From assembly GCA_951406725.2 (NCBI GenBank), contig OX597827.1, positions 76,074,001-76,138,000 of the forward strand: 64,000 nt of DNA, in the 5' to 3' direction. Below the pieces are notes generated by a model that had not been told where the DNA came from, did no database searches, and saw nothing but the letters and a program-made list of their open reading frames with translations. The position numbers were made by a program, and so were the translations under genes. Shown here piece after piece: positions 1-31,389 of this stretch (position 1 is its first letter; every line of letters starts with the position of its first letter). This stretch comes from Octopus vulgaris (Eukaryota).

Positions 1-1243
1 ATGAAAAGTTGGATTTGGTTAGCTTTAACATAAGAGGGATAGAATATTGGGGCCAGTTTAAATGCTAAAGGGTTAAATATTGATTTTATATGTCCTATTT
101 TTTTGCCAGCAAGCCTGTATATATATATATTTATTTATTTATTTTCAGATTTGTTTGCTGTCCTTACAGATGCTGCCCACCACCCAAAAATGGAGATCAA
201 CTTCTGAAGAATCCCTGAATAGCCTTTCTCACATTTGATACATTTTATATCTTCTGCTTCTTTTATAAAGGTTTTTGGCAACTGGGACACTTTACGCATG
301 GCATATTTGGTCCACCCAAAGGAAATTCCCACACCAACCTAACAATCAACCTTGCACGTGTTGTTCTGTCTCTCGGCTTTATAACAACACAACCGCACTT
401 TGAAAAATACTAAATACAACTGCATATGATAACTGTGGTGGATTTTCATTGCTGTGTGTATATATACAAAATCTCTGCCCATGTTGCTGTATACATTCAT
501 AACTGAAAACCTGTGTGTGTCTGTAAGAAATTTCCAACCGTATGTTGAATCTTAATCAATGAGATTAGCATCCACTTCTTTTCCTGAACACTTCTAGTTT
601 TCATATATATATATGTATATATATGTCTGTATACATACACGTATGTAGATATGTAATAGGGGTTGTTTGAGTTGGTATTTCTAACTCTTCAGATTCTTAT
701 TATGCAATATATGTATATATATATATATGTATGTATATTGATAACCTGATGTTCTGTGGATCAATTGACAAACGATGAAAATTTGTGTTCCGTTAAAAGA
801 TAATTTGGAGTCGTATTTTTGTTTTAGTTGACCCCTTATAGATATACCTTGACCCTTTTGTTTACTACCTGAGTACACGGCATTGTTTTGCTCCCCTTAA
901 TTTGTGTCACAAAGGTCGGAGATCACTTTGTCCGTTTGATGGTTAGTAGTTTGTGTGTTGTGTCTGTGATTTGAACTGCTGAACACTTTATCAGAAATGA
1001 TGATACTGTGAAAGTACAACATGTAGGAGTCGAGGATGTCAATTGTCCTCATCTATAGTCTTGCTGGTTTATGATGTAAACTGTTCCTTTTACATAGCTG
1101 TTGTCAACATCATCATCATCATTATCAACAACTACAGTACCACCATAACCATCATCATTACCATAACCATTTGTGTCACCACCATCTTCTCCCTATTGTA
1201 GCAAATCAAATGTAATTTGGAAGCACAGTGACATCTACCCAAT

Positions 1244-3961
1244 ATGTACCCTGTTCAGTCTAGCTACCCTATTGGAAGTCAGCAAGGCATTAACAGCCAA
1301 TCGTTGTACCAAAACCACCATCTGAAAGGCCACCCGAATGCTTCGTCTGGGGGCAAGGCATTTCGACCTTTGGATGGCTCTGGAGGCACAACAGGGACAG
1401 CCACTAGCGTTACGACGTCTAGTGGAGGCGGAAAGAGCTTTAGAAATGATACCATTGCCCGCAAAGATTTGTCTAATCAAAGACCTGCCTTGCCTAACCT
1501 CAATCAGGGTAGTTCCTCTACAAACAATAACACCACTACCAGCACATCCCTTATCCAAAAGACATATCCGTGTACGATTTGTAAGAAGATATTTTCTAGC
1601 CCATTTTTTCTCAAGAACCATGAGCAAACTCACCAGATACATTCAATGGGGTCCACCAAACCATTTGGATGTTCTGGTTGTCACAAGCAGTTCTCTTTAT
1701 TCGTGGACTTAAAGAATCATAATTGTATGCCTGTCCAATCCCAGGCAACACAGGAAATGACAGGCCAAAGAAATCTGATGGGCAACAACATGCATTCAAA
1801 GCCCTATCACTGCGACATATGCAACAGAGGCTTTTCTCACCACGCCAATTTAAAGTTGCACCTTCGCACCCATTCCGGTGATAAACCATTTTCTTGTGAG
1901 GTATGCGGCAAAAGTTTCTCTCAGAAGAACTGTCTAAATGATCACAAGCGGCTTCACAGTGGAGATTTATTTTACTGCAGTTACTGCAAGAAGCCATTCG
2001 CCAATGAATTCTTTCTGCGTAATCATCTAAGAACTCATACTGGCGAGAAGCCTTTTGAATGCAACTTTTGCGACAAGAAGTTTTCACAGCGTGGTAACTT
2101 GAAAACTCATATGCGCATACACACAGGGGAGCGACCGTTTCAATGTGATCTCTGCGACAAATCGTTTGCTCAAAAGAATTGCCTGACAGATCACAAACGC
2201 CTTCACTCTGGCGACATGTTTTTCTGTATTGTCTGCAAGAAAGCATTCACTAACCAATTTTTCTTGAAAATCCACGAACAGAGCCATACTGCTGTGAATA
2301 ATAGTGAAGGAGGTGAAAATATGTTCTATTGCACCTTCTGCAAAAAGGGTTTCTCAAATCAGTTTTTTCTACGTAATCACGAACGGACACACACAGGGGA
2401 AAAACCTTTCCACTGCCAGTTCTGTGGTAAATCATTTGCTCAAAGTGGAAACTACCGTACACACATGAGGATACATACTGGCGAGAAGCCGTTTGTCTGT
2501 GATGTCTGCGGAAAAGCATTTACTCAAAGGAACAGCCTTAGCGACCATAAGCGTTTCCACACTGGCGAACTCTACTATTGTAGTGTATGCAAGAAGGCCT
2601 TCTGCAATCAGTTTTTCTTGAAGATTCACGAACAGACACATTCAGGAGAAGTGTATTATTGTTCATACTGTAAGAAAGGTTACCCAAATCAGTTCTTCTT
2701 AAAAAATCACTTGAGGACTCACACAGGTGAGAAACCATTTGTGTGCCAATTTTGCAATAAAGCTTTTGCCCAACGAGGGAACTTGAAACTTCACGTGCGA
2801 ATACACACGGGGGAGAAACCCCACGTGTGTGACATCTGTGGCAAAGGTTTTGCACAGAAAAACTGTCTGATTGATCACAAGAGAATTCACAGCGGGGATT
2901 TGTTCTTCTGTATTGTTTGTAACAAAGCATTCACAAACCAGTTTTTCTTAAAAATCCACGAACAAGCTCACACTGGAGAGATGTTCTATTGCAGTTACTG
3001 CAAAAAGGGATTTTCTAACCAATTCTTTTTGAAAAATCACGAACGGACCCATACAGGAGAAAAGCCTTTCCAGTGTAATTTCTGTAAAAAGAGTTTTTCT
3101 CAACGAGGAAATCTAAAATTACATCTGCGAAGACATACTGGGGAGCGGCCATTTAATTGTGACGACTGCGGAAAATCTTTCAGTCAACGCAACAATCTGA
3201 TCGACCACAAGAGAGTCCACAACGGAGAATTGTTTTACTGTAACTTCTGCAAAAAGCCATTCTGTAACAAATTTTTCCTACAAAACCATGAACGAACTCA
3301 CACAGGTGAAAAGCCATTTGAGTGTGAGTACTGCAAGGAGAAGTTTTCACACCAGGGTAATTTAAAGACTCACCTTCGCAAACACACTGGAGAGAAACCA
3401 TTCTCGTGCGACCATTGTGGCAAATCCTTCACCCAACGACCCAACTTGACCAACCACAAGTGTCCTGCGGCAATAGCTGCTGCTGCCGCCGGGGACCGGA
3501 TGTTTCTGAAGGGAACCAATACCCTCTCATCGACAATCAACAGCCTTGGTAAGAAGTTCAACACCAGCACAGTCGGTGGTGATGGCGAACTGAAATCGCT
3601 GAACTACAGCTCTTCGAACAAAGAAGCCAACTCCCAAATGAAACCAAACATCAAAAACAGTGAGCTTGTACGTGATCAATCAAACCAACAGAGCAAAGAT
3701 TCCCAAGTGACCACCCCGATTAGGCCGCAGGCGTCTACTGCGTCCTCTTCACATTCCAATTCGACCTACATTCACGGAATGCCTCAGTCGTGGGAAAACA
3801 ACTATTTGTGGTCTCGGGGCTTTGCTGTTCCACCATTAATAGGCTCCGCGTGGCCCAGTGTCACCTGTGCATCCAAACAAAACAAGCAAAACGCTTGGGG
3901 CAACCTCCAAGGGATGCACTCTTCACGAAATACATCAGAAGATATCAGTAGTTCCAAGTGA
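1244..3961 (+). CDS. Multi-finger C2H2 zinc-finger protein (905 aa, 22 fingers, single coding exon)
   Basis: Uninterrupted ORF with 2 isolated N-terminal fingers and a 20-finger tandem array (1805-3463) with TGEKP linkers; fingers 2 and 22 end in C2HC-like HxC. An in-frame TGA lies just upstream of the ATG, a pyrimidine tract plus TAG acceptor sits at about 1200, and AATAAA signals occur at about 4042, 4377 and 4643. Confidence 0.95.
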   Translation: MYPVQSSYPIGSQQGINSQSLYQNHHLKGHPNASSGGKAFRPLDGSGGTTGTATSVTTSSGGGKSFRNDTIARKDLSNQRPALPNLNQGSSSTNNNTTTSTSLIQKTYPCTICKKIFSSPFFLKNHEQTHQIHSMGSTKPFGCSGCHKQFSLFVDLKNHNCMPVQSQATQEMTGQRNLMGNNMHSKPYHCDICNRGFSHHANLKLHLRTHSGDKPFSCEVCGKSFSQKNCLNDHKRLHSGDLFYCSYCKKPFANEFFLRNHLRTHTGEKPFECNFCDKKFSQRGNLKTHMRIHTGERPFQCDLCDKSFAQKNCLTDHKRLHSGDMFFCIVCKKAFTNQFFLKIHEQSHTAVNNSEGGENMFYCTFCKKGFSNQFFLRNHERTHTGEKPFHCQFCGKSFAQSGNYRTHMRIHTGEKPFVCDVCGKAFTQRNSLSDHKRFHTGELYYCSVCKKAFCNQFFLKIHEQTHSGEVYYCSYCKKGYPNQFFLKNHLRTHTGEKPFVCQFCNKAFAQRGNLKLHVRIHTGEKPHVCDICGKGFAQKNCLIDHKRIHSGDLFFCIVCNKAFTNQFFLKIHEQAHTGEMFYCSYCKKGFSNQFFLKNHERTHTGEKPFQCNFCKKSFSQRGNLKLHLRRHTGERPFNCDDCGKSFSQRNNLIDHKRVHNGELFYCNFCKKPFCNKFFLQNHERTHTGEKPFECEYCKEKFSHQGNLKTHLRKHTGEKPFSCDHCGKSFTQRPNLTNHKCPAAIAAAAAGDRMFLKGTNTLSSTINSLGKKFNTSTVGGDGELKSLNYSSSNKEANSQMKPNIKNSELVRDQSNQQSKDSQVTTPIRPQASTASSSHSNSTYIHGMPQSWENNYLWSRGFAVPPLIGSAWPSVTCASKQNKQNAWGNLQGMHSSRNTSEDISSSK

Positions 3962-5147
3962 AAATCGGTGGGGTAAATTACGATAATGATAATAATTATA
4001 ATTAAAATAACATTAATAATAATAGTTGATCTTTGTCTCTTAATAAACATTAATATTCTTTCCTCTGTCTCATTGCATTATTCAAAACATGACTTTGTTC
4101 TCTCACCTGACAAAAATGTAACTACTAGAGACATCTTGTGGTGAAAAACCAAAACCAAAGACCTAGTCAGGGTCAGTAACTCATCCACCACTGGGTGGTT
4201 TATATTTTTTTTCCAAATGACATTTTTGGTTACACCTCAAAAGTTAATGCAAGAGAGGAAAATGTATTTGTTATAAAAAAAAAAATTGACTTTGAGGTGT
4301 GTACAGGGCCTGGACATTAACACACCTCAGCACATCACAATTTGTTTACAAACACTCATATGTAACAACAACAACAAATAAAGGTTGTAACACATTTCCA
4401 CATTCAAAAGATAAACTTCATTTTCACACACATACACACACATAATATTTACAAACACATACATAATACTCATGCAGTCTTAACATAAGGCTTGCAAACA
4501 ATACACTCAAGCTATTATTACATATTGAAACGAGAAAAAAAATAATAATAATAATAATAAATTTTTTAAAAAATGAATTTTAAAAAAACAACAACAAACA
4601 AATGTAATATTTTGTATTTAATGAAAAAATTTTCAAAACCTAAATAAAAATGCAGTGTTGTGTAAAAAAAAAAAGATAATAACAATAACAATAATAATAA
4701 TAATAATAAAGTACTAGTCGAGTACTGAGGTCAGTGTTACTGACTGTCTTGAAAATTGTTGACCTTGTGCTTAAATTTGAAATCAAATAATAATAAAAAC
4801 AATCAATACAGTATAGGACTGAAAATGTGTAAATATAATATAAACTGGACCCTAATACTTTGTTGGTTATGACCCTTTAACTAGGGCTTGCTATGTATAT
4901 AATTCCTTCATATATCCTTTCTTTTTCCATACACATACACACACATATACACTATTCTCGCTTTGTCTGCTTGCTTAACCTGAGGATTGAACCAGTCTTG
5001 GCTACTGACCCCTGATGTATATGTGTGTGTGTATGAGTGTAGGTGGGTGTATTAGCAGAAAATAACGATGCAGATGGATAAGGGAGTTTGGGGAGGAAAA
5101 ACAAAAAGACAGCACCAATGGATGTAAGCAAGTCTGGTCCTTTTCTT

Positions 5148-28929: not shown

Positions 28930-29279
28930 TCACGAGTTCTGTTTACCATGTTTGCCGCTAGAGTAAGATGTAGGCATGTTTGGCCAGCTGGAGCCAAGCA
29001 GTGTGGGCATAGGGTAGCCTCTGGGCCAGAGGTAGTTGGTCTCCCAGTTCTGCGACATCTCATGCAGATATGCAGCGGAATTAAACCGAGACAGGTTTGA
29101 AGGGTGCAGTCGCATTCCACCCTGGGTATCTTGTTGGTTTGGATGAAGGTGTTGCTCTGACCGTCCCATGTGGGAATTTGGTGGTAAATGCTCTTGATGG
29201 TGTTTGTTGGTTTTCATGTTGTGCTTGTTGGAATTTGATGATAACATGGCAGACTGATGAGCTTGCTGTTGTTGTTGGT

Positions 29280-29310
<31 letters not shown>

Positions 29311-31389
29311 TTGTTGCTGCTGCTGCTGTTGCTGCTGCTGAGGTTTCGATGCACTCGTATCACAGTTATACGTGGATGTCTGAGAAGTTGAGGACAAACT
29401 GCTCTTTTCGTGGTGCTGATGGTTGTCACCATCATTCTTGTCTTCGGAGGGCATCATCATGGACGACCCCATCACGGGGAGAGGGTCCGAACCTGGCATC
29501 GGAGGCGAGAGGTTGGAGTCCTTGGGGTACATCATGCAGCCATGAGAAGCGGATGACGAAGCAGTGGAGGCCAACGGCGGCTGCTTGGTGAAGAGCTCAC
29601 AGCCCGTCCGAGTCCTTTTGTGGTTGTTCAGGTTGGCTCGCTGCGAGAACGACTTGTTGCAGGTGTCACACTTGAACGGCTTCTCGCCCGTGTGTGTCCT
29701 CATGTGTAACTTCAAGTTTCCAGCTTGAGAAAAAGCCTTCGAACAAATCTGACATTGGAATGGTTTTTCCCCCGTGTGGGTCCGCTCGTGGTTACGCCAT
29801 TCGGTTCGCTGTGAGAAGAGCTTGTTACAATAGCTGCAATGGAAAGGTTTCTCTCCAGTGTGGACCCGGATGTGGTTTTTCAGGCTAATTTGCAAAGTAA
29901 ACTCTTTGGTGCAATAGTCACATTTAAACAATTGTCCAGTGTGGACACGCTGGTGATTTTCAAGATTAGTTTTTTGGGAGAAGCACTTGTCACAGAGGTC
30001 ACACTTGAACGGTTTTTCCCCCGTGTGAGTCCTCATGTGTAACTTAAGATTTCCTTGCTGACTAAAAGACTTTGAACACATACTGCAATGGAATGGTTTC
30101 TCCCCCGTATGGGTCCTCAGGTGGTTCTTCAGGTTGATCAAAAGGGTGAAATCTTTCGGACAAAATGTACATTTGTAAAGTTCGCCCGTGTGCGTCCGCT
30201 CATGAATCTTCAGAAAAAATTGATTGCAAAACGGTTTCTTGCAGTAACTGCAATAGAACAGGTCTCCAGTGTGAAGCCTTTTGTGGTCGCTTAGATTTAC
30301 TTTCTGGGAAAAGGCTTTACCGCATACATCACAGGCAAATGGTTTCTCACCTGTATGAGTTCTAAGATGGAGCTTTAGATTACCTCTCTGGCTAAAAGCC
30401 TTCGAACAAACACTACAGGAAAATGGTCGTTCGCCAGTGTGAGTTCGCAGATGATTCTTCAAGTTTGTCTCTTGTGAGAAACACTTGTTGCAGAAATGGC
30501 AATGAAAAGGTTTCTCGCCCGTATGTATACGTTCGTGTATTTTGAGGAAGAACTCGTTAGAAAATGGTTTCTTGCAGAACTGACAATAGAGAAGGTCTCC
30601 AGTGTGAATACGGTTGTGGTAAGTCAAATTGATTTTTTGGGAGAAACTTTTACCGCAGACTTCACAAGAATATGGTTTCTCTCCCGTATGAGTTCTGAGA
30701 TGGAGTTTGAGATTACCTTGTTGACTGAAGGCCTTTGGACAAAGGGAACACTGAAAAGGTTTCTCCCCTGAATGGGTCCTTAAATGGTTTTTGAGATTGA
30801 TTTTCTGCGTAAAGGCTTTGTCACAAGAATTGCAGTCAAATGGTCGAACGCCTGTGTGTGTGAGTTCGTGGTTCTTCAGGAAGAACTGGTTGGTGAATCC
30901 TTTCTTACAAAATGTACAAAAGAAAGATTTCTCGTTTCCACCTTGACTGTTTCGCATGCTGTCTCCATCTTGTTGGTTGTTGTCGTTGGTGCTGCCACCA
31001 CTACTACCATCACCACCACTATTACCACCACCACCACCACCACCACCAGCCCCACCACCAGCGCCGCCACCACCACCACCACCACCACCACCACCACCAC
31101 CAGCATTGTTGCCAGGGCTGCTGCACGTTGAAGCGGCACCACTGTTATTCATGCACATGTTGTTATTTCCACTGTTGTTGTCCACACCGTGGCTCCCACT
31201 GGTGGCATCGTTGGCACCGTTTGCTGGACTGAAGTCTTTCCACAACAAGTCGTTGTTCTTGTCGAGGATGTTCATAATCTGTGACTTATCAGGGACTTTT
31301 AAATGGCAGCCAGGGTTGTAGATCGGCTGACCATAGAAGCCAGAAGGGGTGTTGAAGTTCATCGGAAAAACTGGTTGTATCGGATACAT
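28930..31389 (-). CDS. Multi-finger C2H2 zinc-finger protein (819 aa, 16 fingers, polyGly and polyGln tracts), paralog of 1244-3961
   Basis: Uninterrupted ORF with a 16-finger array (29599-30924; last finger degenerate). It has the same finger types and terminal motifs as the + strand gene, a TTACAG acceptor at about 31449, and AATAAA on the minus strand at about 27977. Confidence 0.95.

Follow-up and report, generated by a model that had tools for sequence, protein, structure and literature searches.

A conserved tryptophan-patterned C-terminal motif marks one clade of C2H2 zinc-finger genes in octopus

Two zinc-finger (ZNF) proteins of Octopus vulgaris share a tryptophan-patterned motif near their C-termini that apparently is an undescribed accessory motif of the lineage-specific ZNF kind, outside the named families. 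At least 34 members of a clade that comprises 46 or more genes carry it, and it is no general effector of the cephalopod C2H2 expansion as a whole. Both proteins are encoded in the window, i.e. the whole stretch of 64,000 nucleotides that was analysed, which lies on contig C14 of the 2.8-Gb genome. The two genes, A and B, are convergent, and each consists of one ORF with the motif at its C-terminal end (Table 1). Both encode C2H2 tandem zinc-finger proteins with C-x2-C-x12-H-x3-H fingers and TGEKP-type linkers.

Table 1. Positions of the two zinc-finger genes and their parts in the 64,000-nucleotide window
Feature	Position	Strand	Description
Gene A, coding region	1244..3961	+	single-ORF C2H2 protein, 905 aa
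Gene A, N-terminal family motif	1244..1345	+	MYP start, then decayed zinc finger (assigned by sequence)
Gene A, finger array	1571..3385	+	20 fingers (regex count), repeating units, short linkers (27-residue period)
Gene A, extended C-terminal Trp motif	3716..3889	+	~58 aa; leave-one-out profile 69.6 bits
Gene A, 32-aa core of Trp motif	3767-3862	+	in frame with long C2H2 ORF
Gene B, coding region	28930..31389	-	single-ORF C2H2 protein, 819 aa
Gene B, N-terminal family motif	31288..31389	-	family alignment
Gene B, finger array	29692..30918	-	15 fingers (regex count)
Gene B, extended C-terminal Trp motif	28939..29118	-	60 aa; leave-one-out profile 67.1 bits
Gene B, 32-aa core of Trp motif	28975-29070	-	in frame with long C2H2 ORF

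According to the sequence-only reading, the two paralogs share a gap-free block of 32 residues with three Trp, and this holds down to the exact coordinates: 18 of the 32 residues are identical and all three Trp are retained. The C-terminal regions of the two proteins gave a local score of 150, which was reached by none of 2000 shuffles (shuffle maximum 79). With the motif excised, the score was 55 and was matched by 443 of 2000 shuffles. The claim that the proteins cannot be aligned outside the fingers is thus correct for the remainder of the C-termini, which is at chance level, but not for the N-termini, which share the motif described below. Likewise, the 32-residue block is a real core, but the conserved unit comprises about 60 residues, with an RLQP/SSWM part upstream of the core and a CG/KQ part downstream. 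The identity of the window pair is 44% over the extended motif versus 35% in the flank.

In the 30 family members collected from the genome, the conserved columns are W (27), Y (29), W (30), R (29), F (25), and W (26), and non-aromatic positions are fixed as well (E in 23, N in 24, and R in 29 of the 30). The motif contains 111 of the 130 Trp residues of the 30 ORFs; its W content is 5.8%, compared to 0.07% in the flank. W, F, and Y together make up 11.6% of a chain rich in S, N, Q, H, G, and P (12% Pro, 1.3% Cys). With 3.0% D+E and 6.8% K+R, the motif is net basic and not acid-rich.

Gene A is covered without a break by one contig each of the runs X10 (positions 745-4400) and X4 (747-4212), whose RNA origin is the tool's guess only. 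In the run contigs over gene A, matching starts at position 150, adjoining an AG at 147-148, and positions 60-149 were skipped by the tool. In the three runs covering the motif of gene A, no letter differences were listed inside it. A>G differences were found at positions 1699, 2228, and 2965 in contigs of one or two runs; they may be alleles or the result of RNA editing, which are indistinguishable here.

The genome was searched with three single-protein queries, each a single motif copy, and 33 places were fetched; two weak matches interrupted by a stop codon (E-values of 2.27 and 3.89) were left out of the family set. Thirty of the 33 places are located on C14, and 29 of these are single ORFs with 4-26 fingers, in which N-terminus, fingers, low-complexity linker, and motif follow each other. 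In all 29 intact genes, the motif lies in the finger ORF behind the linker, 33-236 residues past the last finger and 0-27 residues before the stop. The 30 places on C14 form five groups near 0.3 (2 places), 15 (3), 34 (4), 51 (4), and 75-79 Mb (17). In the one that is not an intact gene, L098 (G000:C14:78513303-78515223), eight fingers and the motif are in different frames across a CAA/CAG-rich repeat, and it is either a broken gene or an assembly error.

The loci L096 and L100 (both on C4) and L101 (C6) are copies of the 3' half of L097 that lack fingers and are truncated at the 5' end. The sequence upstream of these copies is common to all three and was not found in L097. They probably derive from a fragment that was captured or retroposed and underwent duplication afterwards. 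A role as functional decoys was considered and rejected, as the copies differ from each other by 4 synonymous versus 7-12 non-synonymous changes, which is close to neutral.

In order to delimit the family, further ZNF loci were compared. The motif was found in none of 20 ZNF loci off C14, which were picked from the best finger matches and are not a random sample; the best score was 9.3 bits, compared to 75 bits for the window genes. Most of these control ORFs end just after the fingers. The fingers themselves also differ: a leave-one-gene-out profile at the finger level was positive for 29 of 29 family members and negative for 25 of 25 control ORFs, and a 27-residue finger period occurs in 61 of 315 spacings in the family versus 1 of 361 in the controls. 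Among 19 further ZNF loci on C14, 16 possess the finger type of the clade. Four of these 16 contain a degenerate motif with more than 20 bits and one scores 13 bits. In the remaining 11, the motif was undetected within the 8-10 kb fetched per locus, where some loci appear split over several frames or exons and a more distant motif may have been missed. The motif therefore seems to be dispensable for part of the clade. The motif-bearing genes amount to about 2% of the C2H2 set, if the 1,453 C2H2 sequences of O. bimaculoides (PMC12513265, excerpts) are used for a cross-species estimate. On the sampled loci, the motif thus appears confined to one clade and is not a badge of the bulk C2H2 expansion. 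The earlier proposal that it marks a ZNF subfamily is borne out by at least 34 genes on C14 and by its presence in both octopods and cuttlefish. Its proposed role as a functional KRAB/ZAD analogue of the coleoid expansion is not supported, given its absence from 20 of 20 loci off C14 and the 11 of 16 further clade genes in which it was undetected.

Among the Cadherin_2 matches listed, 24 of 25 are on C14. This fits the protocadherin- and C2H2-rich chromosome of O. bimaculoides, which holds 165 C2H2 genes, 9% of the total (PMC9068888, excerpts). Protocadherin-type matches lie at 6-15 Mb and 80-83 Mb of G000:C14, close to the clade clusters at 15 and 75-79 Mb.

The substitution pattern indicates that selection acts on the motif at the protein level. 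For the 32-codon core, pS/pN was 0.96/0.26 in the window pair, 0.85/0.25 in 136 pairs, and 0.85/0.33 in all 30 members. Synonymous sites of the core are therefore saturated and replacement sites are not, and the conserved residues are encoded by mixed synonymous codons. In six of seven paralog pairs, the motif had pS values of 0.75-0.91 and pN values of 0.17-0.33, compared to pN values of 0.43-0.56 in the flank. L081 and L082, paralogs 440 kb apart, had a pS of 0.13 over the motif versus 0.44-0.83 elsewhere, which suggests local gene conversion.

The motif was also more conserved than its C-terminal flank in nine of nine pairs with proteins from Sepia, Argonauta, or unnamed sources, and clearly so in eight. 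The identities of motif and flank in these eight pairs were 78/34, 79/30, 66/29, 65/27, 54/21, 47/9, 84/64, and 57/38%, where partial proteins depress the identity of the flank, the assignment of the 47/9 pair is uncertain, and two pairs share one octopus gene. For L081/P0008, the motif is barely above the flank (57 versus 54%). The comparison is biased in favour of the motif because the foreign proteins were found through it. The selective retention that the sequence-only reading had postulated is thus supported by pS of 0.85-0.96 versus pN of 0.25-0.33 and by most ortholog pairs.

When 1.84 billion representatives were searched with a profile of 18 copies, 11 proteins matched; with a profile of 30 copies, 8 of 3540 candidates did. 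The protein of the paralog L082 is identical to a record named Octopus vulgaris / O. sinensis. All matches that have a species name come from Octopus vulgaris/sinensis, O. bimaculoides, Argonauta hians, or Sepia pharaonis, and further matches are nameless; the profile search that had been suggested thus reached a second octopus, an argonaut, and a cuttlefish. One of the 11 matches, the tandem-repeat protein P0014, scored 10.4 bits with the 30-member profile and was dismissed as a false positive. No match outside the coleoids was seen among the 1.84 billion representatives, which may lack Nautilus. Since the lowest listed match had 43 bits and four of the 30 true members scored below this value when left out, the library search can miss weak members. 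In a search for an outgroup, the atypical first finger of L091 retrieved only generic ZNFs (28 matches), none of which exceeded -0.7 bits when scored against the motif profile. A word-seeded search with residues 825-895 of gene A yielded four candidates, none of which scored, and a feature-based query of the ESM Atlas gave no usable match.

A tree was calculated from 42 motif rows, which did not include the three finger-less copies, one batch of further C14 loci, P0014, P0022, and records identical to the octopus genes; 13 of its 38 inner branches were starred. Sepia proteins pair with single octopus genes, and the pairs L084/P0006 (100/99), L095/P0009 (100/99), and L097/P0011 (98/96) are starred. 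L103 pairs with an unnamed record (99/95). The octopod-decapod split dates back about 270 million years. Given these well-supported octopus-Sepia ortholog pairs, several motif lineages are older than this split. The Sepia pharaonis records P0006 and P0009, which fall in the motif clade, are named 'KRAB'. P0006 has no KRAB match in Pfam, and its name looks like a transferred label.

The members of the clade possess a second, N-terminal motif, with an M[YF][PSTQ] start in 26 of 29 family members. Pairwise, the N-termini of genes A and B are borderline (101 of 2000 shuffles). The second half of the N-terminal motif aligns with the family fingers (hhalign E 1.2e-5; 0 of 100 column shuffles) and, judged by this similarity, is a decayed zinc finger. 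Apart from the window genes, N-terminal motif loci are found among L081-L113 and L134-L152. With 22-50 bits, the N-terminal motif is retained in P0007 and in proteins of O. bimaculoides and Argonauta; in P0006 and P0011, two models from Sepia, it is weak (11 and 5 bits). Because several genes lacking the C-terminal motif retain it, the two motifs are separable. Homology between them is not supported. Nor is the C-terminal motif likely to descend from a decayed C2H2 finger, as scores of this height were reached by 42 of 100 column shuffles.

The base-contacting residues of the fingers change little between orthologs. Contact sets are identical in 12 of 14 fingers between L084 and P0007, which comes from an unnamed record and groups with P0006 of Sepia, in 6 of 7 fingers of L102/P0013, and in all fingers of four O. 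bimaculoides pairs. The 12 of 14 unchanged sets in L084/P0007 fit fixed targets better than an arms race. Together with the tree, these comparisons point to an old clade whose fingers are stable and do not evolve rapidly. Contact sets are reused within the clade (123 kinds in 388 fingers, compared to 293 in 408 in the controls). The finger arrays of both window genes consist of repeating units with 27-residue periods before Phe-bearing fingers, which contain Phe at two contact positions (NFFN, NFFI), an arrangement unusual for base reading.

The ZNFs of the bulk expansion (L114-L133 on C28, C29, C21, C24, C7, and others) begin with short charged N-terminal stubs of 17-35 residues. Stub types recur: MEKSEK-like stubs occur in six loci, MExELCE-like stubs in three, and MDF-like stubs in two. 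As they are closer to FiNZ in position and charge, these stubs may be better candidates for a KRAB/FiNZ analogue than the C-terminal motif.

The motif matches no known domain, in agreement with the earlier statement that it is unrecognised. Pfam contained no match for the two cores; the best match of the 30 copies (E 0.031) was an unrelated peptidase family, and no family fits. PDB sequences gave no match at E 10. The KRAB-A box (PF01352) is absent from the N- and C-terminal regions of both window genes and from the 30 motif copies, and neither a Pfam match nor a predicted fold relates the motif to ZAD, SCAN, or BTB. AlphaFold2 returned a mean pLDDT of 57.3 and a pTM of 0.14 for the motif, and a model that contains no strand and no helix of four or more residues. 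The predicted complex of two copies scored 0.02, compared to a mark of 0.32; the alignment was not used for this prediction, which speaks neither for nor against self-association. The 30 copies were further scanned with sixteen cofactor and modification patterns. WRPW, eh1, PxDLS, the PBX hexapeptide, the CSL and HCF motifs, LxxLL, and the Nanos NIM occur in 0 of 30 copies each; the only patterns present in more than two copies are GW/WG (16) and a PPPLI-like stretch (6). Nor does the motif resemble an acidic activation domain, being net basic with fixed positions. The sequence-only reading had named a known domain, or restriction to two genes with conservation no better than that of the flanks among orthologs, as findings that would speak against it; neither was observed.

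Our preferred reading, to which we give somewhat better than even chances, is that the motif serves as a disordered docking site for one specific nuclear cofactor, which it would recruit to the DNA sites that the fingers recognise. The motif would then be a Trp-patterned C-terminal segment of an old coleoid C2H2 clade, predicted to be disordered alone, that may fold upon binding of its partner. Contact would presumably be made by the W-E-N-x-Y-x-W-x-R-x-F core and the last Trp, and the bound cofactor would be brought to DNA sites chosen by the fingers. Tail-less members of the clade might act without this partner or compete with their tailed paralogs. Judged from composition alone, there is a slight lean towards a co-activator over a co-repressor. 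With its fixed positions and low acidity, the motif fits a defined interface better than an acidic activation domain. Acidic activation domains share no motifs (PMC8137143, excerpts) and lose sequence while keeping function (PMC13004512, excerpts).

A rather unlikely alternative is a non-acidic activation or condensate segment rich in Pro, Ser, Asn, and aromatic residues, which would make loose coactivator contacts and have no single partner. The content of aromatic residues in a low-complexity chain and the lack of a predicted fold agree with this explanation, and aromatic low-complexity activation regions at the C-terminus are common in animal factors. However, the spacing and the E, N, and R positions are fixed in spite of saturated synonymous sites, and fuzzy domains share no motif (PMC8137143, excerpts). 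It is improbable that the motif is a homo- or hetero-oligomerisation module that, like ZAD or SCAN, pairs clade members on DNA. Its presence in many clustered paralogs would suit such a module, and the aromatic residues could form an interface, but 12% Pro and the absence of predicted secondary structure argue against it. Moreover, ZAD and SCAN are folded N-terminal dimerisation domains and not cofactor recruiters, so that the analogy to KRAB and ZAD mixes two mechanisms. Improbable to a similar degree is that the tail is no effector but regulates the protein of which it is part, as a degron or as a site for localisation or autoinhibition. The tail is short, disordered, Ser/Pro-rich, located near the C-terminus, and lost in part of the clade; on the other hand, about 60 residues with three to five Trp would be long for a degron.

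It is very improbable that the motif serves the cephalopod C2H2 expansion as its equivalent of KRAB, a silencing domain directed against transposons. In favour of this, the accessory motif is restricted to one lineage and occurs on clustered genes with many fingers, and binding to transposable elements is predicted for the octopus ZNFs taken together (PMC10547256, excerpts). Yet no sampled ZNF locus off C14 contains it and the fingers of these loci are of another class, the contact sets of L084/P0007 and L102/P0013 are mostly identical, and the motif is neither acidic nor N-terminal nor on an exon of its own. As a marker of the expansion, a KRAB-like silencer is largely refuted. Least probable is retention at the nucleotide level, by gene conversion, an RNA element, or recent duplication, with no function of the protein segment. 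Signs of conversion over the motif in L081/L082 are in line with it. In contrast, six other paralog pairs have high motif pS, conserved residues use mixed codons, and orthologs across orders keep the motif; for the family, this explanation is refuted by the saturated synonymous sites.

Among known systems, FiNZ of the cyprinid ZNFs is comparable in that a short, lineage-restricted accessory sequence lacking similarity to known domains defines a ZNF subfamily; cofactor recruitment is unproven in both cases. FiNZ comprises 28 residues, is N-terminal, Glu-rich, and encoded on its own exon, and occurs in about 700 fast-evolving genes (PMC10547256, excerpts). The octopus motif, in contrast, is C-terminal, Trp-rich, not acidic, located in the finger ORF, and present on about 35 old genes. 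With KRAB (PF01352), which recruits a TIF1-family corepressor and H3K9me3, it has in common that an accessory module, for which cofactor recruitment is proposed, sits on clustered tandem C2H2 genes; unlike KRAB, it is at the opposite end of the protein, has no sequence match or predicted helix, and does not mark the bulk of an expansion. The contact-set counts also set the clade apart from KRAB-ZNFs and FiNZ-ZNFs, since rapid change at base-contacting positions is not seen. ZAD (PF07776) and SCAN (PF02023) likewise are lineage-associated companions of C2H2 arrays, whereas the octopus motif has no Pfam match, little Cys, and no predicted fold. WRPW, the PBX hexapeptide, and the CSL-binding motif use a conserved Trp in a disordered region for docking, and by analogy the octopus motif most likely works like such Trp-containing cofactor motifs, although it is far longer, contains several Trp, and matches none of these patterns.

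In the papers examined, the cephalopod C2H2 expansion is treated by means of counts, trees, and expression, and the passages covered name no accessory module. Four small cephalopod-wide C2H2 clusters of 39-163 sequences have the highest expression (PMC12513265, excerpts), and the main text of that paper does not contain the words 'motif', 'terminal', or 'effector'. Like these 'cephalopod-specific' clusters, the motif clade is common to octopods and decapods, and like the C2H2 genes on the protocadherin chromosome (PMC9068888, excerpts), it resides on this chromosome type; it probably belongs to these described groups. Dozens of ZNF families remain uncharacterised (PMC10547256, excerpts), and no description of the motif was found in the openly accessible literature searched.

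A more far-reaching reading, which we regard as speculative and rather doubtful, is that coleoids invented the motif as an effector with an undescribed interface to a conserved cofactor. At least 46 stable factors, interspersed with protocadherin clusters, would then constitute a combinatorial code of neuron types, in which tailed and tail-less paralogs oppose each other. The motif leaves the bulk expansion unexplained. It sets an old conserved clade of about 46 genes apart from a far larger set of finger-only genes, can serve as a marker for the assignment of orthologs between octopus and cuttlefish, and, as a tail of 60 residues, offers a handle for studying these factors by tethering and pull-down.
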